Below are positions 1 to 53,369 of a DNA stretch of 53,369 nt, in pieces (position 1 is the stretch's first letter; each line of letters starts with the position of its first letter). Source of the stretch: a virus (taxonomy: Duplodnaviria; Caudoviricetes); the IMG/VR virus record IMGVR_UViG_3300037706_000057, positions 1 through 53,369 of that record. One strand, written 5' to 3'. Under the pieces are notes generated by a model that saw only the letters and a program-made list of their open reading frames with translations, was not told the origin of the DNA and made no database searches. The position numbers and the translations under genes were made by a program.

Positions 1-108
1 CCGCGAGTCGTCGCCGCTATACCCGCACCGCTTGCGGACCATGTGGATGAAAGAGCAGCGTCGCTGGCTGTGCCGGTGGATGCAGGACCGAGAGAGGACA
101 GGAACGCT

Positions 109-336
109 ATGAAGATCTACACGCTGTTCTACAACAGCGGCTACCTGGGTGCCTACCGGGAGCGTCCGGCTGCGCAGGCAGCCGCCCGGGAGCGGGCCGA
201 GTACCGGGACGAGCTGTTCCCGGACGAGGCTGTGACCTGGGAGGAGGACGCCACGCCGGGCCGGAAGACCCGCTGGATCATGAGCGTCGGTGGCAGCTGG
301 GCCGGCTACCACGTCGCTGAGGACCAGCTCCGCTGA
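109..336 (+). CDS. Hypothetical early protein, 75 aa (allele A)
   Basis: ATG after AGAGAGGACAGGA. Frame preserved in the diverged second copy (52786-53013). Confidence 0.8.
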   Translation: MKIYTLFYNSGYLGAYRERPAAQAAARERAEYRDELFPDEAVTWEEDATPGRKTRWIMSVGGSWAGYHVAEDQLR

Positions 337-376
337 CACCCACCACCCACTACCACCACCGAAAGGGTTGATCTTG

Positions 377-619
377 ATGAACATCACCGCCGAGGAACTT
401 CGCGACCGACTTGACGCCGGACTGGTGGTCCTGATGGTCCACCCCGGCAAGCCCGAGCTGGGCTGGCGCCGGTACTCCCAGCACCCAGACAGCGGCTACC
501 TGCTGGTCGCCGAGCGCGGCGACGGGTGGGGCGAGCAGCTCGGCCCGCGGGAGGTCCACGGGGCGCTGCTGGGTGACCTACTGGACCACTGGACCGTGTC
601 CACACCGAGCGAGGGTTGA
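377..619 (+). CDS. Hypothetical early protein, 80 aa (allele A)
   Basis: GAAAGGG SD. Frame preserved in the second copy (53075-53329), with an in-frame 12-nt indel. Confidence 0.8.
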   Translation: MNITAEELRDRLDAGLVVLMVHPGKPELGWRRYSQHPDSGYLLVAERGDGWGEQLGPREVHGALLGDLLDHWTVSTPSEG

Positions 620-624
620 TCTTG

Positions 625-885
625 ATGCGTACGTACTGGTCCGAGACGCTGCAGCGCCGAGTCACCATCCCCGACGACACCGAGGAGTTAACGATGCGAA
701 CCACTACCCGTGCGTGCAATGTAAAGACGGGCGACCGGATCGTCCACCCCCACACCGGCACGGCTGTCACCGTCACCCAGACCGGCGGCTACGCCCCGTA
801 CGTCGCCCTGCACGTCAGCGCCGACACCGGCAGCGCCGACCTGCTCACGCCCGACATGCTCGACCCCATAACCGTCATCCGCTGA
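625..885 (+). CDS. Hypothetical protein (alternative in-frame start at 694)
   Basis: Start context GGGTTGATCTTGATG also precedes 377. Internal GAGGAG-ATG at 694. Confidence 0.65.
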   Translation: MRTYWSETLQRRVTIPDDTEELTMRTTTRACNVKTGDRIVHPHTGTAVTVTQTGGYAPYVALHVSADTGSADLLTPDMLDPITVIR

Positions 886-26304: not shown

Positions 26305-27864
26305 TCAGTAGAAGCTCTGCAGCACGTCATAATCGGCCTCGGCCACCAGCTCACCCCACGCGCCGTGAAGCCACCGCGCCAACGTCAACGACACAATCGG
26401 ACCGATCTGACCACCCGACACCCGCGGCGACCACGCCACAGTGTCAGCACCCTGCCGCACCTGACCCACCGCCGCCGAATCATCCAGCGGCTTGGACGGC
26501 CGCACCCGCAGCGAACACTGCTTCACCGCGTCGATCATCTGCCCGCACGCCGCCGCCATCGTCATCGGAGTCATCACCGCCACATCACCCCGACACGGCT
26601 CCTCCGGCACCTCCGGCACCGACAGGCCGACATCGGCCAGGTCATCCCGCAGACTCTCGTAGGTGCCACGGCCCAACGCCACCCCGATCGGGTCCAACGC
26701 CTCCCGCAGCTCCGCCAGCCGCCCCGGAAGCCAATCCACACCCGGCCGGTAATCCACCAGATGCCCATGACCCAGCCCGTCGGCGCGCAGCCCGAACACC
26801 GCCACCGAACCGAACTCACGCAGCGGATCCACATCCGCGCCGATGGCCACGTCACCCACCCGGGCCGAACCCGGGTCCTGCAACGCCCGCCACTGCGCCT
26901 CTGTGATCACACCCTGCAGCATCCGCGAAGTCTTCCGGTTTCCGTACGCCCGCGCGAACTCCGCCGGCTCCATCGCCGCCCGCTCCGAGCGGATCGCGTC
27001 CATCGTCACCGTGTGCCGCCACCGCTGCCCCGCCGGAGCGCACCGGCACGGCGGATCGGGGCACAGCGCCGGCATGAACCCGAAGTACGAAGCCTCATCC
27101 GCCGGGTCCCACTTGTCCGGCGCCGACCACTCAAAGTACGCCACGCCCGAGCCGACATCAGCCACCGTCGCCGCGCGGCCCGCCTCCACCTTCCGGTTAA
27201 GGATCACACTCGCGTCCGTGCCGGCCGTTGAGCAAACCAGCAACTGGGCATCCGGAACCGTGATCATCGCCGGCCGCAGACCCTGCTCCCGCCGCTCATC
27301 CGCGTCATGCCAGATCTCATCCATCACCGCCTGGTGGATGGACTTCGAGTGGCCCGAGCTCGCCGAGGTCGACAACAGCCGGATCAACGACCCGGTGGCC
27401 CAACGGACCGACTCGTTACCCATCCCCTCGTTGATCTCCAACCGCTTACCCTTGCGGGAGACCAGCCGGGCGATCGCCGAGTTACGGATCAGCGGAAACA
27501 GCTCATCCAGCCACTTGTCCCGGGCGTCCTTACCCGACTGGGCGGTAAACACCGACCGCTGCGGATGCGACCAGCGCGCCGAGTTGCACCGGTTGATCTG
27601 CCACGACAGGAACAGGGTCGTCTTCCCCTGCTGCCTAGGTACTGTGACGACCACCTCACGGTAGGCCGGCAACCCGGTCGCCGGGTCGACCTCACACCCG
27701 ACATCGGCCACATACCGCTGCCACGGCATGAACGGCTGAGCCAGCCGGTCGGCAACCGCCGCCAGCTCGTGGCCGAACGTCGCCCGCTCAGGCCGGCGGC
27801 GTGTCGAGAACCGGGGCGGACAACTCAGCGATGAGGCGGTCTGCCTCGCCAGAATCGCCGTCAT
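26305..27864 (-). CDS. Terminase large subunit
   Basis: MPWQ adenine motif, Walker A VPRQQGKT, Walker B AVMDE, coupling motif STAG. Confidence 0.95.
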   Translation of the reverse strand: MTAILARQTASSLSCPPRFSTRRRPERATFGHELAAVADRLAQPFMPWQRYVADVGCEVDPATGLPAYREVVVTVPRQQGKTTLFLSWQINRCNSARWSHPQRSVFTAQSGKDARDKWLDELFPLIRNSAIARLVSRKGKRLEINEGMGNESVRWATGSLIRLLSTSASSGHSKSIHQAVMDEIWHDADERREQGLRPAMITVPDAQLLVCSTAGTDASVILNRKVEAGRAATVADVGSGVAYFEWSAPDKWDPADEASYFGFMPALCPDPPCRCAPAGQRWRHTVTMDAIRSERAAMEPAEFARAYGNRKTSRMLQGVITEAQWRALQDPGSARVGDVAIGADVDPLREFGSVAVFGLRADGLGHGHLVDYRPGVDWLPGRLAELREALDPIGVALGRGTYESLRDDLADVGLSVPEVPEEPCRGDVAVMTPMTMAAACGQMIDAVKQCSLRVRPSKPLDDSAAVGQVRQGADTVAWSPRVSGGQIGPIVSLTLARWLHGAWGELVAEADYDVLQSFY

Positions 27865-28659: not shown

Positions 28660-28966
28660 ACGAACCGTCCATAATAGCCAATCAAATCTGTGGATGCCCG
28701 GCCACCGTGAACCGCGTAGCACTAGACATAGAGACATCTAGATGGTTAGCGTCACTTTGGTCTATGTCCGCTTTGTTCCCAGAGCGGTACTGGGAAGGTG
28801 GCCATTCCAAGATCGGGAACAAAGCGGACATAGACGATGCTGTATGTAAATCCGACCACCTGACAGTGTCACACCTCGGCCAAACATCTAAAAAAGTCGA
28901 TGCCTTCCCGAACTTGATTGATGGTTGTCTGTCTTTAGTGGACCTACCCAGTGTCCACTGCGAACA
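28660..28966. other. AT-enriched intergenic region, probable cos/packaging site
   Basis: Between HNH and TerS. Perfect 21-bp IR (28760-28780/28815-28835) and several palindromes. Confidence 0.6.
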
Positions 28967-35719: not shown

Positions 35720-36824
35720 GGCGGCATCCCCGTTCGGTCGCGATCCTCACGCTGTCTTCGCTGGCGTCGCAGCCGGTTGCGCTCCGTCCCAGCCGGGCCG
35801 CCGCGAGCAAGAACGTCCCGGTACCGGCGAAGGGGTCGAGAATCAGATCACCGGGTCGACTCGCATGGCGGACGAACCGCTCGGCCAGCTCGTCGGGCTT
35901 CTGCCAGGCATGCCAGCGGTCGCCGTGCCGGCCGTCCGGCGCGTTGATGTCCTGGACGGTGAACTGCTCGGTCATCTCTGGGCAGTCCAGCGGGGCGGCG
36001 TTGGGGCCGCGGTAGTAGAGGATCGCCTGCCAGTTCAGTTTGTAGTCGTGGCTAGGGCTGGGGCCGAGGGTGTTTCGGTAGGTCCACACCAGTACGTTGG
36101 CCAGCGTGAACTCGCCGGCCGGCACGTCGAGGTAGGCGTAAAGCTCCTCAGGGTAGGCACCGATGCACACGTATGCCCGGCCAGATGGCTTGACCTTCTT
36201 CAGCGCGACTGGTAGCCAGCCCTGCGCGAACCTTTGCACGTCCGGGACGTCTGTCGAATACGGGGGGTCGGTCAGCAGCAGGTCGCAATCGTCCTGCTCG
36301 GCCAGCCAGTTCTCCCATCCGGACAGCGTGATCTGTGCGACCAGGGGCGCGGCGGCGGCCCGCTGCTGCTCTCGTGCCCGCTTGCTCGTCTCGCGCTCAG
36401 TGTGCTTCGCGTCGGCGAGTAAGCGGGTGGTCGGTAGTTCCCGCCCGCGCTCTGACGCCTCGGCGAACCGTCGCCTGAGGTCGTCATCGGTGAAGGCGTC
36501 CCGAATTCGGCGCGCCTCATGCAGTCGCTGAGCAGGAACGGGCAGGGGCGCCGGGAAATTATCCGGACTCCGGATAATTTCCGGACGTCCGACTGCCGCG
36601 ATTTCACCGCGGGCCTGGCCTTCGTCGACCACGTCGGCTAGCCGCCGCATCGCTCTTGCCTTGATCAGTAGGGCGTGGTTCACCGAAAGAGTACTCAGTC
36701 CCATCCGCTTTGCCAGGTCCGCAGCGAAGCTCGCGAGGTCAAGGACCTCCTTGACCTCCTCGGGCGTTGTTGCCCTGGCGAGCAACCGCTCCGCCCTAGA
36801 TACCTGGTCAAGCACCCCGGTCAC
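35709..36824 (-). CDS. DNA amino-methyltransferase (N4-C/N6-A, beta class)
   Basis: TDPPY before H..QKP and LILDPFAGTGT. GGAGGAGG SD + GTG. Confidence 0.92.
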   Translation of the reverse strand: MTGVLDQVSRAERLLARATTPEEVKEVLDLASFAADLAKRMGLSTLSVNHALLIKARAMRRLADVVDEGQARGEIAAVGRPEIIRSPDNFPAPLPVPAQRLHEARRIRDAFTDDDLRRRFAEASERGRELPTTRLLADAKHTERETSKRAREQQRAAAAPLVAQITLSGWENWLAEQDDCDLLLTDPPYSTDVPDVQRFAQGWLPVALKKVKPSGRAYVCIGAYPEELYAYLDVPAGEFTLANVLVWTYRNTLGPSPSHDYKLNWQAILYYRGPNAAPLDCPEMTEQFTVQDINAPDGRHGDRWHAWQKPDELAERFVRHASRPGDLILDPFAGTGTFLLAAARLGRSATGCDASEDSVRIATERGCRLVV

Positions 36825-42458: not shown

Positions 42459-42892
42459 CGTGGTCCTCTCTGGTGAGTGCCGGGCGGCGCGGCGGCGTCG
42501 GTCGCAGGCACCGCGCCACCCGGCGGGTCCAGGTAGCGCCACTCGATCCGGGTGACCTCGGTGTCAGGCATCACGCCCATCTGGTCGCAAAACCAGGTCA
42601 CCCATTGGTTCGGGGAGGGCGCAGTGACGGCTGGCCAGAAGTGGTCATGGGGCACTGCCTCGCGCACGATGTCTTCCTCGGTGATGGTGTCCAGCCGTTC
42701 CCGGCGAACCGACACCACCTCAACCTCGGCCAGCCGCACCAGCGGCTCACCGGCGCGGCGGCCCATGACCTTGCGGCACAGGGTCAGCCGGTCGCCTGGT
42801 TTGAGGTTGAGCCAGCCGAGTCGGCGGGTGACGGTTTTGGTCCTGCCGACCACCTGGGGCTCGGTGAGCGCGACGGACATGAGCCGGCTCAT
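42455..42892 (-). CDS. ASCH-domain protein
   Basis: KTVTRRLGW..LKPGD...VVSVRRERLDTITEED...RIEW. Confidence 0.8.
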   Translation of the reverse strand: MSRLMSVALTEPQVVGRTKTVTRRLGWLNLKPGDRLTLCRKVMGRRAGEPLVRLAEVEVVSVRRERLDTITEEDIVREAVPHDHFWPAVTAPSPNQWVTWFCDQMGVMPDTEVTRIEWRYLDPPGGAVPATDAAAPPGTHQRGPR

Positions 42893-42909
42893 GGCGCACC
42901 TCGCACGGG
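42888..42909. repeat. 22-bp direct repeat bounding the yhhQ-dpdA cassette (copy at 44185-44206)
   Basis: CTCATGGCGCACCTCGCACGGG identical at both sites. Confidence 0.9.
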
Positions 42910-43671
42910 CGCAGCCGCGAACAGGTCCAGCTGCGCCGGCGCGGCCAGTCTGTCGAGCACCCCGCTGCGCCACTGCCGCGCCCACTCCGGGCAGTTGGCC
43001 TCCCACGCGACGATCCCGTGGGGGCAGCGCCCAACCCGCCGCCGGGCGCCATACGAGCCGGCCATCGAGTCAGCCGAGGCGAGCAGATGGCCGTAGGACC
43101 GGAGCCCGTCAGCCTTGACCCCGAACCCGTGCAGCGGCAGCCCCCGCCTGGCCAGTTCCCATACGATGGCGCCGATCTCGGCCGTGGCCTGCCGCCGGCA
43201 CACCGTGCCCAGCCCGACCAGCGGCTCCACGGTCAGGTCGACTCCGGCGCGGTCGTATTCGTCCAGGTGGCGGAGGTAGTCGCCCAGCTGCCACCCTTGC
43301 AGCACCGGGATGATGGGCAGGTCCGGCGCGAGCGCCCGCAGCTCCAGCAGGTTGTCCGTGGTCCGCCGCTGGTGCTCGGCCACGCTAAGCCCGGTCTTGG
43401 CGACGATCCACGGCTCACACATGTGGTCTTGAGGGCTGACCCACTCCAGCCGGCCGATCTCGTCCTGGTACCGGCGGACCGCGGCAACGTATTCGGCCGG
43501 GCTGATCGTCCACCGGCCGTGTGTGCTCAGTTCGGTGAAGCCGCCGGAGTCGCACACCCACGGCGCGGTCGCCCGCGGCAGGGTGACCCGCCGGCGTAGC
43601 CGGCGGTGGGAGACCATCAGCGGCAGCCCGAGCGGCAGCCAGTGCACGTCAGCACCGAGCCAGAAGCGCAT
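42889..43671 (-). CDS. dpdA: DpdA-like 7-deazaguanine DNA transglycosylase (TGT fold)
   Basis: DSGGF, PQDHMCEP, PVLQG, GLGTVCRR, LHGFG, ADSMA. Confidence 0.85.
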   Translation of the reverse strand: MRFWLGADVHWLPLGLPLMVSHRRLRRRVTLPRATAPWVCDSGGFTELSTHGRWTISPAEYVAAVRRYQDEIGRLEWVSPQDHMCEPWIVAKTGLSVAEHQRRTTDNLLELRALAPDLPIIPVLQGWQLGDYLRHLDEYDRAGVDLTVEPLVGLGTVCRRQATAEIGAIVWELARRGLPLHGFGVKADGLRSYGHLLASADSMAGSYGARRRVGRCPHGIVAWEANCPEWARQWRSGVLDRLAAPAQLDLFAAAPVRGAP

Positions 43672-44189
43672 CAGGTCACCGCCTGCCGGACCCGGCGCGG
43701 CCAGCGGACCGCGGCCAGCAGCGCGACCGCGGCGAGGGTGACCCACACCTTGCCGATCACCTGGCCGGGCAGGAACGCGAGCGAGCCGAACGCCAGCAGG
43801 AGGAAGATCACCGAATCGGCGACCAGCCCGACCACGTTGGACGCCAGCACGGCGGCGTACCAGCGCCGGCGACGCAACGGTGAGTAGACGGCCATGTCCG
43901 CCAGCTCGCTCACCCCGAACGCCACGGCGGAGGCGACCACCAGAGCCGGTGGAGCCACCAGCGCCGAGCACCCTGCCCCGGCGGCGATCGCGGCGAGTAC
44001 CGCCCACCGGCCGCCGAACTCGTGCAGCAGGTCGCGCAGGGTGAAGGCGAGCCCGGCGAAGTAGACCCCGGCCGGGGCCAGCAGCCCGAACCCGACCGGT
44101 ACCGCGCCGAACTGGACGATCGCCCAGTTGGCGGCGAACACCGTTGCGACGAAGCCGAGCGTGGCCAGCATCGCGGTGGCGTGTCTCAT
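43671..44189 (-). CDS. yhhQ: VUT/YhhQ-family queuosine precursor transporter
   Basis: Multi-TM with AANW, FTLRDLL, ASAVAF.VSELAD, SNVVG..DSVIFL..AFG. Confidence 0.88.
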   Translation of the reverse strand: MRHATAMLATLGFVATVFAANWAIVQFGAVPVGFGLLAPAGVYFAGLAFTLRDLLHEFGGRWAVLAAIAAGAGCSALVAPPALVVASAVAFGVSELADMAVYSPLRRRRWYAAVLASNVVGLVADSVIFLLLAFGSLAFLPGQVIGKVWVTLAAVALLAAVRWPRRVRQAVT

Positions 44190-45103
44190 GGCGCACCTCG
44201 CACGGGTGCCCGGCCGGTCCGGTCCGGGTAGTCGCGTACCCGCAGCTCCGGCGGGAAGGCCTCGATGTCGTGGTGGTCCCGCCCCCAGCGGGAGCCCAGC
44301 TGCTTCACGAACACGGGCACCCCGGCGTTCTGGCACTGCTGGACCAGCGAGCGTGCCCAGTCCAGCTCCATCGGCCTCGCGCCGGGGCCGGACTCGCCGC
44401 CCACGATCAGCCAGTCGATACCGGCCAGGTCCAGGGATGGCAGTCCGCCCAGCAGCGGCTCGGCGGAGATGAACCGGACCGCTGCCGGCGTCTCGCGCAG
44501 CCGCTCGGCGCGGCGACAGTGCCCGTCGTCCTCGATCGACGTCCCGACCCACACGTTCGGCAGCGGCCACCCGGATCGGTGGTAAAGACCAGGCTCCAGG
44601 CCCGGCACGTACGTCGGGCTGTGCGGCGTAGCGGCCCACTCCATCTCGGACCGGAAGTGCTCACCGGGCGGGTGCTGAGAGCCGCAGCGGCATTCGTCGG
44701 TGAGCATCCGCGCCAGCCGCTCCGGCCGCTTCGTGAGGATCTGGTAGGTGTGCTGCGGCGTCGCGGCCATCACCGCGAACACCCGGGCCACGAACTCGCG
44801 CGGCACGCGGGCGTGCCCCAGGTCGCTCATGCTGTTGACGAACACGGTGCGTGGCTTCCGCCACCGCAGCGGCTCCGGCAAGGTGCCCGGGTGAAGTGCC
44901 AGTCCGAACCCCGGCCCGGAGGTGCGCGGGTCGCCGTCCGTCTGGTACTTCGGTGAGCCCATCGCCTTTAGCCGCTTCGCCAGCGTGAGCGCATAGCAGT
45001 TGTCGCACCCTGACGAGATCCGGTCACATCCGGTCGTGGGGTTCCACGTCTCGCCCTTCGTTCCTGGACGGTGCGTCCACTCGATAGCGGTGCCGTCAGC
45101 CAT
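44186..45103 (-). CDS. Gp37/Gp68 (DUF5131) radical-SAM-like protein
   Basis: IEWT...WNPTTGCDRISSGCDNCYA, FVNSMSDL, LTKRPER, SAEPLLG, GGESG. Confidence 0.92.
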   Translation of the reverse strand: MADGTAIEWTHRPGTKGETWNPTTGCDRISSGCDNCYALTLAKRLKAMGSPKYQTDGDPRTSGPGFGLALHPGTLPEPLRWRKPRTVFVNSMSDLGHARVPREFVARVFAVMAATPQHTYQILTKRPERLARMLTDECRCGSQHPPGEHFRSEMEWAATPHSPTYVPGLEPGLYHRSGWPLPNVWVGTSIEDDGHCRRAERLRETPAAVRFISAEPLLGGLPSLDLAGIDWLIVGGESGPGARPMELDWARSLVQQCQNAGVPVFVKQLGSRWGRDHHDIEAFPPELRVRDYPDRTGRAPVRGAP

Positions 45104-45545
45104 GGGACACCCCCATCCGCACGGGCGCCCGGCCGGTCCGGTAGGCCACGTGGGCATGGCGGGCGGGTAGCTGGGTGCCGCCGGCGCGGTGACGGCCGGC
45201 GGCGGGCAACCGGAGACCCGCCGCCGGCCGCCCGGCCCGCCCGGCTACAACCCGGGCGGGAGTGTGGGCGGCGCCCGCCGCCGCGCACCCCGTGACGGGG
45301 GCGGGCGCCGCGGCCCCGGCTGCTACCGCGTGCCAGCGGGAGCCGGGGCGTCCACCCGCCGGCAGGGGGCGCCGGAGCGGGCGGAGCAGGGTGGTGGTGG
45401 CGTACACGGCGCCGAGTAGCGGCAGCGGCCCGGCGGCGATCAGCAGCGCCAGCCCGGCGGCCACGCCGGCGAGGATCGCGGCGGTGGCCAGGGTGGTGGC
45501 GGTGGCGGGGTTGGTGACCCACACGGCCACGTGGCGGCGGATCAC
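45096..45545 (-). CDS. Membrane hypothetical protein
   Basis: Hydrophobic N-terminal half, coupled ORF. Confidence 0.5.
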   Translation of the reverse strand: MIRRHVAVWVTNPATATTLATAAILAGVAAGLALLIAAGPLPLLGAVYATTTLLRPLRRPLPAGGRPGSRWHAVAAGAAAPAPVTGCAAAGAAHTPARVVAGRAGRPAAGLRLPAAGRHRAGGTQLPARHAHVAYRTGRAPVRMGVSHG

Positions 45546-48838: not shown

Positions 48839-49231
48839 ATGGATGAACTGGCGACGCTGAACGACCTAGTAGCCAGCGAGATTCGAGCATGGATCGGGCG
48901 CCGACAGACCACCGGGCGCAAGCTGGCAACCAAGATCGGGAAGTCTCAGAGTTGGGTCTCCACCCGGACCCGGGGCGAGACAGAGATCGCGGTGAACGAC
49001 CTACAGCTTTTCGCCGACGGTCTCGGGATACCGCTCGCGAGCCTGCTGCCAGCCCGCGACCTTAATCATCGTTCTGGCCACCCGACCGAAAGTATGACCC
49101 CGCGCGCCAGCACCCACCCCGCCAGCTCGGCCGTACGGACCGCACCAGCATCCACCACCCGGACAACCCGCCGGCCCACCGCCACCACCGCAACCGGCCG
49201 CACGCGCAGACCCGCATGGCAGCACGGATGA
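48839..49231 (+). CDS. Immunity repressor (XRE HTH) with low-complexity C-terminal extension
   Basis: GRKLATKIGKSQSWVSTRTRGE. Divergent from cro and upstream of the integrase. Confidence 0.85.
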   Translation: MDELATLNDLVASEIRAWIGRRQTTGRKLATKIGKSQSWVSTRTRGETEIAVNDLQLFADGLGIPLASLLPARDLNHRSGHPTESMTPRASTHPASSAVRTAPASTTRTTRRPTATTATGRTRRPAWQHG

Positions 49232-49299
49232 CACCCGGCCGGGTGGCCACCACACCCCGGGTGCGACCCGGCACGCCCGGCCCGGCCGAGCGTCCGAGC

Positions 49300-50109
49300 A
49301 TGGACGACACCCCCCACATCACCGCCTGGCTGGACCACCTCGCCGCCGTCGGCCACCCCGCCACCACCCGCGACACCTACCGCTGCGTGCTCACCCGCGC
49401 GTCCCGGGAGCTGCCCCACGGCCTTGGCCAGGCGCTGCAGGAGGAGCTGGTCGCCTGGCTGGGCACCCACCGGTCCCTGGCCACCCGCGCCGCCTACCGC
49501 GCCGCCCTGACCAGCTTCTACCGGTGGGTGTGCGCGTCGCGCCGGCTCAAGGGCGCCAACCCGGCCGCCGACCTGCCGAGGATAAAGCGGCCGCGCAGGC
49601 TGCCCCGGCCGGTCGAGCATCACGAGCTCGCGCTGATCCTGGACCGGGCGGCCGAGCCGGTCAGGACTTGGGCGGTGATCGCCGCCTACTCGGGCGCGCG
49701 GTGTTGCGAGATCGCCCGCCTGGACCGGGGCGACGTCACGGAGCAGAGCACCCGGCTGCACGGCAAGGGCGACCGGCAGCGCAGCGTGCCCACCCACCCG
49801 GCGGTGTGGGCGGCGGTGACCAAGCTGCCGGCTGGGCTGGTCGCCGGCGGGCGGACGCCGTGGCAGGTGTCCCACGCGGGCGCCGGCGAGTTCCGCCGGC
49901 TGGGGGTGGCCGGCGGGTTGCACCGGCTGCGGCACTGGTACGGCACGCACATCCAGGCGGCGGTCAGAGATCTGAGGGTGACGCAGGAACTGCTGGGCCA
50001 CGCGTCTCCGGCGACCACGGCGGTGTACACGGCGGTGTCCGACGTGGCGATGCGCGCGGCGGTGCTGGCGCTGCCGCACACGCAAGGCGACCCCGGCAGC
50101 CAGCCGTAG
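49300..50109 (+). CDS. int: Tyrosine integrase/recombinase (short, no obvious arm-binding domain)
   Basis: Catalytic R-K-H-R-H-Y: SGARCCE, HGKG, HRLRH, LLGH, TAVY. Confidence 0.93.
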   Translation: MDDTPHITAWLDHLAAVGHPATTRDTYRCVLTRASRELPHGLGQALQEELVAWLGTHRSLATRAAYRAALTSFYRWVCASRRLKGANPAADLPRIKRPRRLPRPVEHHELALILDRAAEPVRTWAVIAAYSGARCCEIARLDRGDVTEQSTRLHGKGDRQRSVPTHPAVWAAVTKLPAGLVAGGRTPWQVSHAGAGEFRRLGVAGGLHRLRHWYGTHIQAAVRDLRVTQELLGHASPATTAVYTAVSDVAMRAAVLALPHTQGDPGSQP

Positions 50110-50662: not shown

Positions 50663-50797
50663 GGCGACGCCTCCCCCTCCTCCCGCCACCACAGTGATCG
50701 CCGCGGGGGCGCGCGTGGGGGTCATCCGGACGGGTCGGCCGGCTGTCGGGTTCCGGACTGGCCGCCCCTATGTAGAGACCCTGCTACAGTGAGCCCC

Positions 50798-51064
50798 ATG
50801 CACGTGACTGTAGCCACGGCGAAGGTCCTGGCCGCGTTCCTGGACACGCAGCCCCGGTACGGCCTGGAGCTGATGCGGGAGACCGGTCTGCAATCCGGGA
50901 CGCTGTACCCGATCCTGGCCCGGCTGGAGCGCGCCGGCTGGGTCGACTCCGCCGCGGAGGACGTGGCGCCGCAGTCCGTCCGCCGGCCGCGTCGCCGCTA
51001 CTACCGGCTGACCGGGAAGGGCGACGCAGCCGCCCGTCTTTGCAGAGCCGCCCTCGCCCTTTAG
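50798..51064 (+). CDS. PadR-family transcriptional regulator
   Basis: YGLEL...SGTLYPILARLERAGWV...RRYYRLTGKG. TACAGT 7 nt before the ATG. Confidence 0.92.
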   Translation: MHVTVATAKVLAAFLDTQPRYGLELMRETGLQSGTLYPILARLERAGWVDSAAEDVAPQSVRRPRRRYYRLTGKGDAAARLCRAALAL

Positions 51065-51426: not shown

Positions 51427-51629
51427 GGCTCACTCCGATCAACACACTGCCGCGGATGCGTATCTTCGTAGATGAACGCGACGCTGAGGCCCATGACGAA
51501 CACGGCGAAGACCAGAACGACCCCCGCAGCCACCCTGGCGGCACCCCAAAGGCCGGTCGCGCCGGTCGCGAAGCTGGACCCGACCGCCAGGCCCCCGAGC
51601 AGCAGCCCGGTGATAACCAGCCAGTCCAT
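51423..51629 (-). CDS. Small 2-TM membrane protein
   Basis: Coupled ORF, hydrophobic. Confidence 0.6.
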   Translation of the reverse strand: MDWLVITGLLLGGLAVGSSFATGATGLWGAARVAAGVVLVFAVFVMGLSVAFIYEDTHPRQCVDRSEP

Positions 51630-51850
51630 CAGTCCACACTCCGATCAAGATCAGTCCGGGTCAGGTCACCGTGCCGCCGGATGTACGCCCGCAGCGCCCG
51701 CACCACCACCGCGGTGAGGGTCTCCCCCTCCACTCCGGCAGCCGCCCGCGCGCGGGCAATCTCCAGCGCCGGGTACCACAGCTCATTCGGGATGCGCATG
51801 GCGTGTAGGCGGGTACCCGGGTAGGGCGGGTCGCCCGGCTCCGTGGCCAT
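51629..51850 (-). CDS. Ribbon-helix-helix DNA-binding protein
   Basis: HAMRIPNELW...ETLTAVVVRALRAY. Confidence 0.75.
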   Translation of the reverse strand: MATEPGDPPYPGTRLHAMRIPNELWYPALEIARARAAAGVEGETLTAVVVRALRAYIRRHGDLTRTDLDRSVD

Positions 51851-52227
51851 CACGCCACCGCCAACTCGGCCCAGGTGGTCCACCGCGCCTGGCCGGTCGG
51901 GATGGCCAGCGGCTCGCCGTCGAAGCCAGTCCCGACCCGCTCGCCCTCAAAGATGACCACCGCGTCGTTGTCGCCAACGATCATGTGCTCGGTGGCGTAG
52001 GCGATCAGGTCGGCGGCGCTCTCGCATGCCGAGTAGCCGTAGCTGGCGTCATCCCAGCCGGTGCCTCCGCAGGTCGGGCAGTCCTGCTCGCCGGGCAGGC
52101 AGCGGGTGCAGCGGGTCTTAGTGCCGTCCTGGTTCCACTCGGCGCCCCACGGGGCGGACCAGGCGTTCTCGGGGGAGAACGTCGGCGCGTCCGGGTTGGT
52201 GTGGAGCCGGTAGTAGGTCTCGGTCAT
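51850..52227 (-). CDS. Hypothetical protein with Zn ribbon, possible ADP-ribosyltransferase-like fold
   Basis: YYRLH...CTRC..CPTC...GYSACES...DGE. TACACT 6 nt before the ATG. Confidence 0.65.
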   Translation of the reverse strand: MTETYYRLHTNPDAPTFSPENAWSAPWGAEWNQDGTKTRCTRCLPGEQDCPTCGGTGWDDASYGYSACESAADLIAYATEHMIVGDNDAVVIFEGERVGTGFDGEPLAIPTGQARWTTWAELAVA

Positions 52228-52236
52228 GCCTCAAGT

Positions 52237-52346
52237 GTAGCTACGTAGCTGGTATACGGCATCGCCTGAACGTAGCTACATGACTGACCGAAAGTATGAC
52301 CCCTCAGGCTTGTCAGTAGCTACATGGTGAGCTAAGCTGTAGATAC
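52237..52346. promoter_or_regulatory. Four GTAGCTAC-type palindromic operators
   Basis: GTAGCTAC at 52237, 52272, 52316 and GTAGATAC at 52339, overlapping both divergent promoters. Confidence 0.75.
52310..52338 (+). promoter_or_regulatory. Rightward promoter TTGTCA-N17-TAAGCT
   Basis: Near-consensus housekeeping sigma elements with 17-nt spacing. Confidence 0.7.
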
Positions 52347-52785
52347 AAGAGAAAAGAGAAGCCAGAAGCTCAGGAGAAACCACAGGGCCGCGAAGATCCG
52401 AAAGGGGAGCGGAAGCCGGAACCGGGAGGAGAAGGAAGGAGGACCTGCAGCCTCCTAGCTGGCGCGGCTGACCCGTTAACCGGCGATGTGCTCCCCGGAC
52501 TGGCTCAGCGGGAACCGGGGATAGGCCGAAGTCGCCCCCATCAATGAGCCCTACACCCGCGCCAGCTAGGAGGATGCAGGACGCAGGGTCCTGCAGCCTC
52601 CAGCACAGCCAGCGCCCAGCGGACCCGGGTAACCGGGGGAAGCCGCGCGGCACGGCAAGGTCACGGTCTGGGCGTGGCCGCGAGTCGTCGCCGCTATACC
52701 CGCACCGCTTGCGGACCATGTGGATGAAAGAGCAGCGTCGCTGGCTGTGCCGGTGGATGCAGGACCGAGAGAGGACAGGAACGCT
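52345..52785 (+). ncRNA. Candidate structured ncRNA / long 5' leader
   Basis: 24-bp and 28-bp closing stems, GNRA tetraloops, potential pseudoknot, no convincing ORF. Confidence 0.6.
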
Positions 52786-53013
52786 ATGACCATCTACACG
52801 CTGTTCTACAACAGCAGCTATCTCGGGGCCTTCCGGGAGCGTCCGGCTGCGCAGGCAGCCGCCCGGAAGCGGGCCGAGTACCGCGACGAGCCGTACCCCG
52901 ACGAGGCTGTGACCTGGGAGGAGGACGCGACCCCGGGCTGTAAGACCCGCTGGATCATGAGCGTCGGTGGCGAGTGGAGCGGCTACCACGTCACCGAGGA
53001 CCAGCTCCGCTGA
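52786..53013 (+). CDS. Hypothetical early protein (allele B of 109-336)
   Basis: Same length, scattered amino-acid substitutions. Confidence 0.8.
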   Translation: MTIYTLFYNSSYLGAFRERPAAQAAARKRAEYRDEPYPDEAVTWEEDATPGCKTRWIMSVGGEWSGYHVTEDQLR

Positions 53014-53074
53014 CCGGGCCGTCGGCCACACTGACACCCACCACCCACTACCACCACCGAAAGGGATGATCTTG

Positions 53075-53329
53075 ATGAACGCCACCACCACCCAGACCGC
53101 CAAGGATCTTCGCGACCGGCTCGACGCCGGACTGGTGGTCCTGATGGTCCACCCCGGCAGGCCCGAGCTGGGCTGGCGCCGGTACTCCAGGCACCCAGAC
53201 AGCGGCTACCTGCTGATCGCCGAGCGCGGCGACGGGTGGGGTGAGCAGCTCGGCCCGCGGGAGGTCCACGGGGCGCTGCTGGGTGACCTACTGGACCACT
53301 GGACCGTGTCCACACCGAGCGAGGGTTGA
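53075..53329 (+). CDS. Hypothetical early protein (allele B of 377-619)
   Basis: 4 aa longer at the N-terminus, otherwise near-identical. Confidence 0.8.
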   Translation: MNATTTQTAKDLRDRLDAGLVVLMVHPGRPELGWRRYSRHPDSGYLLIAERGDGWGEQLGPREVHGALLGDLLDHWTVSTPSEG

Positions 53330-53369
53330 TCTTGATGCGTACGTACTGGTCCGAGACGCTGCAGCGCCG

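Follow-up and report, generated by a model that had tools for sequence, protein, structure and literature searches.

A conserved module of two tandem stem-closed domains in an operon leader of a small actinophage lineage is a candidate RNase III processing unit

The window, by which we mean the whole stretch of DNA analyzed (a complete IMG/VR virus record of 53,369 bp with approximately 70% G+C), contains a discrete, non-coding module that is linked to a promoter in a single orientation and matches no Rfam family. The module consists of two tandem domains, each closed by a long and nearly perfect stem. We consider it a real and probably undescribed motif of narrow distribution, the function of which we infer from its sequence features. 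It probably acts at the RNA level in one way or another, when processing, released small RNAs (sRNAs), 5′ protection, and attenuation are taken together; the remaining probability falls to a MITE-like origin without function and to roles at the DNA level. As a specific explanation, we tentatively prefer a 5′-UTR unit made of two autonomous double-stranded RNA stems that would be cut by RNase III. To our knowledge, control at the RNA level has hardly been described for phages of high-G+C actinobacteria.

Judged by its gene content, the phage is a temperate, siphovirus-type actinophage. A single long block of minus-strand genes, extending from about 48.5 kb to about 4 kb, encodes DpdA, DUF5131, a RecT-like protein (E 1.4e-4, below the Pfam cut-off), a methylase, terminase, portal, protease-capsid, tape-measure, and amidase. 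The integrase and two regulators are listed in Table 1, and a DUF6221 protein is also encoded. The element occupies the 558 nt that separate two divergent genes, a leftward one with its start at 52227 and a rightward one with its start at 52786; the operon downstream of it (~4 kb) consists of small genes and converges on the lysis genes. The first 112 nt of the window are repeated at 52678-52789, and from there the alignment goes on to the window end with scattered substitutions and two indels, which indicates that the contig combines two strain variants and wraps around a genome that is circular or permuted. Relatives of the portal protein (47–56% identity) were present in Leifsonia, Spongiactinospora, and Diaminobutyricimonas assemblies. 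Model R1, which matches domain 1 on the + strand at 175.9 bits, gave no match in the three actinobacterial genomes that have portal relatives. A long inverted repeat in the Leifsonia region was rejected as a relative of the module, as it sits in chromosomal coding sequence. A 42-residue fragment of the portal protein also matched (52%) in a Poribacteria MAG.

Table 1. Features of the window that bear on the module (window positions)
Feature	Position	Strand	Details or basis
Partial second copy, 3′ half of domain 2	1-112	+	100% identity to 52678-52789, from contig wrapping
Tyrosine integrase	49216-50109	+	
PadR-like regulator	50786-51064	+	
Arc-like repressor	51629-51883	-	
Four operator-like copies of palindrome GTAGCTAC, across divergent promoter region	52237-52247, 52272-52282, 52316-52326, 52339-52349	.	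Repeat search
Rightward promoter	52310-52338	+	-35 TTGTCA 52310-52315, 17-nt spacer, -10 TAAGCT 52333-52338
Variable purine-rich 5′ leader, outside conserved module	52345-52434	+	Includes GAAA-loop hairpin; alignment
Conserved module	52435-52775	+	GAAGGAGG, domain 1, spacer, domain 2, CGAGAG; alignment of five sequences
Domain 1 (137 nt)	52444-52580	+	Closing-stem G-A mismatch 52450/52574; interior 52471-52553 with GGCGAT/GTCGCC and TCCCCGG/CCGGGGA
Spacer between domains	52581-52586	+	Variable; ACGCAG in window
Domain 2 (180 nt)	52587-52766	+	Stem mismatches G-A (52596/52757), U-U, A-C; interior 52615-52738
Linker with ribosome-binding purine run, then first gene of operon	52767-53013	+	ATG 52786, 75 aa

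The initial annotation of this region had described two tandem domains closed by long stems with a common motif, and every detail that we checked by direct reading and by repeat search was borne out. Inverted repeat 1 has arms of 27 nt at 52444-52470 and 52554-52580 that are 93% complementary and separated by 83 nt, and it contains the annotated core of 24 bp with a single G-A mismatch; the 28-nt arms of inverted repeat 2, at 52587-52614 and 52739-52766, are 89% complementary (three mismatches) and separated by 124 nt. These two are the best-quality long-range inverted repeats of the whole window. Their ungapped stem scores were 22.0 and 20.5, compared with a mean of 8.75 (sd 1.03, maximum 12.5) in 300 dinucleotide shuffles of 52230-52800. 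The common motif is seen as direct repeats, GGACCTGCAGCCTCC and GGTCCTGCAGCCTCC at a distance of 146 nt and GGAGGATGCAGGAC and GGTGGATGCAGGAC at a distance of 183 nt, so that both domains have 15 and 14 nt in common at the outer ends of their arms. With at most one mismatch, CCTGCAGCCTCC occurs four times in the window (0.73 expected; 0 of 100 shuffles gave four), although one of the four matches, at 26913, is unrelated to the module. Domains 1 and 2 have different sequences in the inner halves of their stems, and yet complementarity is retained within each domain, which base pairing explains better than one common protein-binding sequence does.

The minimum free energy (MFE) fold reproduced both closing stems and the nested helices. 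The smaller pairings that had been annotated (CCCGG-GTAA-CCGGG, GGTCACG/CGTGGCC, GGCGAT/GTCGCC, and TCCCCGG/CCGGGGA) are all present, and the promoter hexamers, GGCTCA (52502-52507), and TGAGCC (52545-52550) are found at the coordinates assigned to them. The interior of domain 2 forms the hairpins CCCGG-GUAA-CCGGG, GGUCACG/CGUGGCC, and CCG-CUUG-CGG, and model R1 reached this domain only through its stem (18.2 bits, E 0.066). For the fold of the whole region, the z-scores were modest, at -2.7 (+ strand) and -3.1 (- strand). Folding energies for the + and - strands were -78.1 and -84.4 kcal/mol for domain 1, and -104.5 and -104.8 kcal/mol for domain 2. Since the + strand was not favored, we rejected folding energy as a means of choosing the strand; the module is assigned to the + strand because of the promoter and of its co-transcription with the gene that begins 20 nt further on.

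The symmetry of folding energy between strands is also what an element acting as DNA would give, either as two small invertible segments or as a cluster of four sites for a recombinase, an initiator, or a partition protein. There are four copies of a 12-nt motif in two inverted pairs, and the 27-28-bp inverted repeats flank 83 and 124 bp in the manner of small invertible promoters. We consider a DNA-level role very improbable, however. The five contigs, together with pieces from four sequencing runs, were collinear and had no strand-changing joints, even if contigs can hide rare forms, and the complementary but differing inner arms fit a hairpin and not a common protein site. The module also lies far from the replication genes. 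A role as attP was rejected because the module is intact inside one relative (G001, below) that is classed as a provirus.

The annotation had found no convincing ORF between the promoter and the first gene, and our results agree. In 52345-52785, third-position G+C was 0.78-0.80 in the highest frame and 0.60-0.75 in the others, whereas the genes just downstream had one frame at 0.88-0.95 and the lowest at 0.42-0.57. An 81-aa ORF at 52544-52789, the sizeable one in the region, had no match in Pfam or PHROG and was interrupted in relatives by indels of 1, 2, and 8 nt; frame-breaking indels occur in G001, G002, and G003. A coding leader or small ORF was therefore rejected. The statement that no known RNA family was recognizable was confirmed as well: at the gathering score, Rfam 15 gave no match in the whole window, and a relaxed scan of 52200-52900 gave five junk matches, all with E of at least 2, the best at 18.8 bits against a cut-off of 50. 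Two further candidates were discarded. A tRNA or tmRNA was rejected because ARAGORN predicted no such gene in the window, and a retron non-coding RNA because PF00078 had no match in the record and did match in control genomes.

Some parts of the first interpretation did not hold. A riboswitch or ribozyme is not supported, as there was no Rfam match and the conservation of the interiors barely exceeds that of third codon positions; the proposed GGCTCA/TGAGCC pseudoknot showed no covariation and lost one of its six pairs in one relative; and the A-rich 5′ part with the GAAA tetraloop does not belong to the element, since three of the five phages have an unrelated leader there. For the same reason, the element of about 440 nt had its two domains correctly described but its length overestimated, and the conserved unit is about 340 nt (52435-52775). 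The promoter, the lack of an ORF, the stems, and the lack of a known family are thus what was retained.

Relatives were identified by a 15-mer scan of IMG/VR that returned 72 loci. Only four had two matches approximately 146 nt apart, and the partner motif was found in these same four alone. They are G001 (classed as a provirus), G002 (with direct terminal repeats), G003, and G004, which together with the window make five sequences. The module keeps its position and orientation behind the promoter in all five, while its neighbors have been exchanged: at least four operator sets occur, and both the 5′ leader and the first gene come in two unrelated versions. Palindrome GTAGCTAC is present at the operator sites of the window and G004, and other palindromes take its place in G001, G002, and G003. 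The 90-nt leader exists in one version in the window and G003 and in another, unrelated one in G001, G002, and G004, and the identity of 52345-52434 to three relatives was 0.62-0.66. In G001, both flanks of the module are replaced. Per 30-nt bin, identity to three relatives was 0.89-1.0 in the module and 0.44-0.66 just upstream.

The promoter was annotated from its hexamers, and the comparison strengthens it. CTTG of the -35 and A2/T6 of the -10 (within the annotated hexamers, TTG and the A and T) are unchanged in all five sequences, amid bases between and around them that could not be aligned; a scan with a strict sigma-70 consensus did not flag 52310-52338. The transcript would start near 52344-52346. 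Neither a promoter nor a terminator was found between domain 2 and the ATG 20 nt further on, so the downstream genes must be co-transcribed with the module. Four phages have the 75-aa gene as first gene, and G001 has an unrelated 116-aa gene after the same CGAGAG. The 75-aa product matched no known family and had only five protein clusters in a database of 5.8 billion sequences; searched alone or as a five-sequence alignment, it led to the same three loci both times. Two more distant clusters of this protein are P0004 (78% identity) and P0005 (66%).

A location directly behind a regulated promoter in all five phages, and stems of such stability, could also serve transcription control on the nascent RNA, where the hairpins would pause or terminate the polymerase or would confer resistance to termination as the put RNAs of HK022 do. 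Terminators of high-G+C bacteria can lack a U-tract. The 3′ arm of domain 1 can alternatively pair with the 5′ arm of domain 2 (14 nt, 93%), which would make a switch possible, but deletion of the spacer in G001 removes the loop of this alternative hairpin. The put RNAs resemble the module in being paired stem-loop elements just downstream of early promoters, and they act in cis. They measure about 70 nt, consist of two simple stem-loops, and occur once per early operon, whereas the module has two units of 137-180 nt in one leader only, and antitermination by it is putative. A search for terminator-like sites gave none, the leftward operon has no second copy, and there is no likeness to any Rfam cis-regulatory family. 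The operon is short (~4 kb), which implies a weak need for processive antitermination. For these reasons, we consider transcription control quite unlikely.

To compare constraint along the leader, variable columns were counted in the window, G002, G003, and G004; G001 was left out, as its gene differs. The closing stems had 2 variable columns of 110, and the interiors 24 of 207. In the adjacent gene, 11, 10, and 15 of 75 columns varied at codon positions 1, 2, and 3, respectively. The stems were less variable than third codon positions (p = 3e-5) and than the interiors (p = 0.002), and the interiors were somewhat less variable than third positions (p = 0.08). In the single-sequence MFE structure, 13 variation events fell on 222 paired positions and 18 on 119 unpaired ones (p = 0.009); in the RNAalifold consensus structure, 8 of 210 paired and 30 of 128 unpaired positions were variable, a count that is partly circular. 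Fewer variable columns in the stems, and variation that avoids pairs, identify the stems as the strongly constrained part. Judged from this alignment, both stem arms are under strong purifying selection and the interiors are mildly constrained. Alternatively, the arms could be invariant because a mobile unit spread recently or because they are recognized as DNA.

At the level of single pairs, 25 of 25 in the closing stem of domain 1 and 27 of 29 in that of domain 2 never vary. Changes on both sides of a pair were found in 0 of 105 pairs, and 98.7% of cells were paired. This absence of covariation is due to the relatives being too alike (mean column identity 97% in domain 1), and the structure is consequently a prediction from thermodynamics and conservation. 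In one or two relatives, five pairs are disrupted, among them one with a T-to-G change at 52758 that enlarges a stem mismatch in G002 and G004. Two helix changes confined to one side produce G-U wobbles on the + strand. In G001 and G002, a 2-nt deletion turns the GUAA hairpin into CCCG-ACAC-CGGG and the hairpin is kept. The spacer between the domains has one extra A in G002 and lacks eight alignment columns in G001; its variability and its deletion indicate that the two domains are independent units.

The module could also be a gene for stable regulatory sRNAs that would be cut from the leader and act in trans or on their own transcript, as the leader-derived c4 and CI immunity RNAs do. The slight deficit of variation in the interiors relative to third positions is in line with such a gene, as are the ability of RNase III to make sRNAs (PMC8687705) and the placement of the module, in a repressor-controlled leader that adjoins the immunity region and precedes small ORFs. 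But the constraint on the interiors is weak, and the rest of the genome offered no convincing target: its best complementarities were 11-14 nt long, which is chance level and led us to reject an antisense target elsewhere in the genome, and an 11-nt match at 53104-53114 is lost in the window's own second variant. No Rfam family matched either, although the database contains a C4 family. We regard an sRNA gene as rather unlikely.

The distribution of the module was narrow in every collection searched. The exact stem-pair pattern had four matches in viral contigs, all of them the known relatives, none in one genome each for 185,579 species, and six in metagenome contigs, all unrelated on inspection and due to chance; scans of this exact kind would overlook diverged copies, and the collections may lack the host genome. 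Two interior core patterns led only to known relatives in viral contigs (two of four and four of four). A blastn search for distant relatives returned nothing among 50,697 phage records and nothing among 72,556 plasmids, and no second full copy was found within the window. Parts of the stretch were present in 15 sediment or soil DNA runs. Contigs from four of these (X4, X7, X8, and X9) contained few new variants and no strand-changing joints.

These results weigh on the explanation that the leader contains two related MITE-like palindromic DNA units, whose RNA hairpins would be by-products of selfish or formerly mobile DNA. Such units, of 137 and 180 bp with terminal inverted repeats of 27-28 bp and a common 15-bp end, would be comparable to Correia or ERIC-type elements. 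Correia elements measure approximately 100-180 bp, have inverted repeats of approximately 26-28 bp, and carry target-site duplications. The arms of the module (27 and 28 nt, with 15 nt common at the ends) have the form of terminal inverted repeats, and its size and repeat length resemble those of the Neisseria elements, which are co-transcribed into mRNA leaders where their hairpins bind RNase III (PMC2649163). The termini of the two units are common and the interiors unrelated, as the stem-only match of R1 to domain 2 illustrates. Boundaries are sharp with both flanks mosaic, and a low-depth contig from X8 reads the last 43 nt of domain 1 and continues with unrelated sequence exactly after 52580. 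This contig is a weak hint of mobility, as is a loose end of 15 letters after 52455 in run X4, which reads the inner arm of domain 2 and would be either a variant without domain 1 or a misplaced fragment.

Against a MITE-like nature, Correia elements occur in many copies per genome, whereas the module was single-site in every search made, always at an identical site and in the same orientation, and only 4 of the 72 IMG/VR loci, the syntenic relatives, had the partner motif. No target-site duplication is visible (flanks GGAGGA/ACGCAG for domain 1 and ACGCAG/GAGAGA for domain 2), and the module is confined to one small phage lineage. Moreover, the inner arms differ between the units, which one common transposase does not explain. 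A pair of selfish or formerly mobile units is therefore unlikely.

We return to the explanation that we tentatively prefer, RNase III processing, which is plausible because the length of the stems fits and the mismatch is at the same place in both. RNase III needs approximately two helical turns of double-stranded RNA (~20 bp or more), as work on T7 and lambda has established, and the leader-trailer helix of rRNA is one of its substrates. In all five sequences, the 25 and 29 predicted pairs of the closing stems exceed the approximately 20 bp of continuous double-stranded RNA that this enzyme takes. This reading is based on the stem length, on the same mismatch at the same distance from the base in both stems, and on the arrangement of a closing helix round a structured RNA, as in rRNA precursors (a leader-trailer helix is named in the title of PMC10250234). 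Correia hairpins provide a parallel of similar form, as they are bound by RNase III, which cleaves or protects them (PMC2649163).

According to this model, transcription would begin at the promoter at 52310-52338 and would pass through the variable purine-rich leader into two autonomous RNA domains, each closed by a nearly perfect helix of 24-28 bp; the 12-15-bp base motif and the G-A mismatch are common to both helices. The closing helices would be the functional parts, as substrates of the double-strand-specific RNase III of the host. Cuts in the two stems would detach the leader, free two structured RNAs of roughly 90 and 130 nt, and leave the downstream mRNA with a new short 5′ end just ahead of the ribosome-binding site; this end would set the stability and translation of the operon. 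The action as RNA, RNase III as the enzyme, and the effect on the operon are what we infer here.

Known RNase III processing hairpins share several traits with the module. Those of the T7 R sites and the lambda N leader occur in phage early mRNAs and, like the rRNA leader-trailer helices, are long and nearly perfect, with at least two turns and a small internal mismatch. The phage sites also lie in transcript leaders, the rRNA helices close round a structured RNA, and a stem motif is repeated between sites. In contrast to them, the module has no sequence or Rfam relation to such hairpins; each of its helices closes a multi-helix interior of 83-124 nt, which simple RNase III hairpins do not; and it is built of two tandem units before the first gene, with cleavage only predicted.

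A related possibility combines processing with an action of the products. The domains could be leader-embedded twin RNAs of a new class, excised via a common sequence-specific double-stranded stem and regulating the lysis-lysogeny circuit or a host factor, which we think unlikely. In that case they would correspond, in an actinophage, to the immunity RNAs c4 of P1 and CI of P4, with an excision principle like that of rRNA. The c4 RNA of P1 and P7 and the CI RNA of P4 are likewise structured RNAs in a repressor-controlled leader by the immunity region, before small ORFs. They are, however, processed by RNase P, whereas the module has long closing stems, no Rfam match, and no target complementarity above chance.

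That the module keeps its place behind a repressor-controlled promoter amid exchanged surroundings marks it as a part with a function in the early or the immunity circuit. Should the stems be RNase III sites, they would provide a defined processing cassette for high-G+C hosts and a natural case of two RNAs excised like rRNA. If the module is instead a domesticated MITE pair, it would show palindromic mobile DNA turning into a regulatory part of a phage. Its general importance is limited by the narrow distribution, five contigs and a handful of sediment and soil runs.

The rightward promoter upstream of the conserved non-coding module lies in an operator-like region, and its palindromes differ among the related phages (Table). 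Four GTAGCTAC palindromes occur both in the window and in G004, one of the four related IMG/VR contigs (G001–G004), while the operator sites are of the TGTACCAC type in G001, of the CTGTCGTGACAG type in G002, and of the CCAAGTGG/TTGCCAAC type in G003. Despite these differing palindromes, the −35 TTG and the −10 A..T are constant across the window and G001–G004. Judged from these sequences, a single predicted promoter skeleton carries exchanged immunity specificities. The first leftward gene also varies between phages.

Features in the window and in loci of related phages (L086, the G001 locus; L085 and L012)
Feature	Location	Strand	Evidence
Operator-like region	window 52237-52349; L086 1310-1420; L085/L012 540-770		
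DpdA homologue and adjoining DUF5131 protein	window 42889-45157	(-)	PF23859, E 1e-78; DUF5131, E 2e-83
Small proteins adjoining the module	window 51850-52227; L086 1874-2224	(-); (+)	CxxC...CxxC zinc-ribbon-like motifs

The motif of the small proteins reads CTRC...CPTC in the window and CEGDGTCGAC in G001, and neither protein matched a family. Elsewhere in the window, the DpdA homologue beside a DUF5131 protein suggests a 7-deazaguanine-type modification of the phage DNA.

Alignment of window positions 1-692 with 52678-53369 revealed that the two contig ends overlap. Positions 52678-52789 are identical to the first 112 nt of the window; past these, the alignment reaches the window end with scattered substitutions and two indels (21 and 12 nt). 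The record therefore represents a circular or permuted genome that was wrapped, joining two strain variants. This reading is contrary to the IMG/VR classification of the record as linear.

Within the variable leader, 52389-52399 is perfectly complementary over 11 nt to the start of the second gene (53104-53114). Such a match is no better than expected by chance (E 4.5), and it is lost in the window's own second variant. In X8, a sequencing run from sediment or soil DNA, one low-depth contig contains the end of domain 1 (52538-52580) and switches directly after 52580 to C-rich sequence that is unrelated; in a piece from a second such run, X4, the 15 letters beyond 52455 form a loose end matching domain 2 in its inner arm. 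Both cases may reflect single-domain variants, or else assembly noise.

Other repeats were also observed. Upstream of a related portal gene in a Spongiactinospora genome (L102, 15278-15556), GGGGTTTGGCGGGGTTT-type repeats, direct and inverted, form a dense array resembling a cluster of iterons or operators; this array has no relation to the twin-hairpin module. The methylase region of the window contains a 22-nt palindrome (36546-36590) with a TCCGGATAATTTCCGGA core, 86% complementary. A perfect 21-bp inverted repeat, its arms separated by 34 nt, lies at 28760-28835 in a relatively A+T-rich stretch immediately upstream of the terminase-side genes, where it could serve in termination, packaging, or late regulation.
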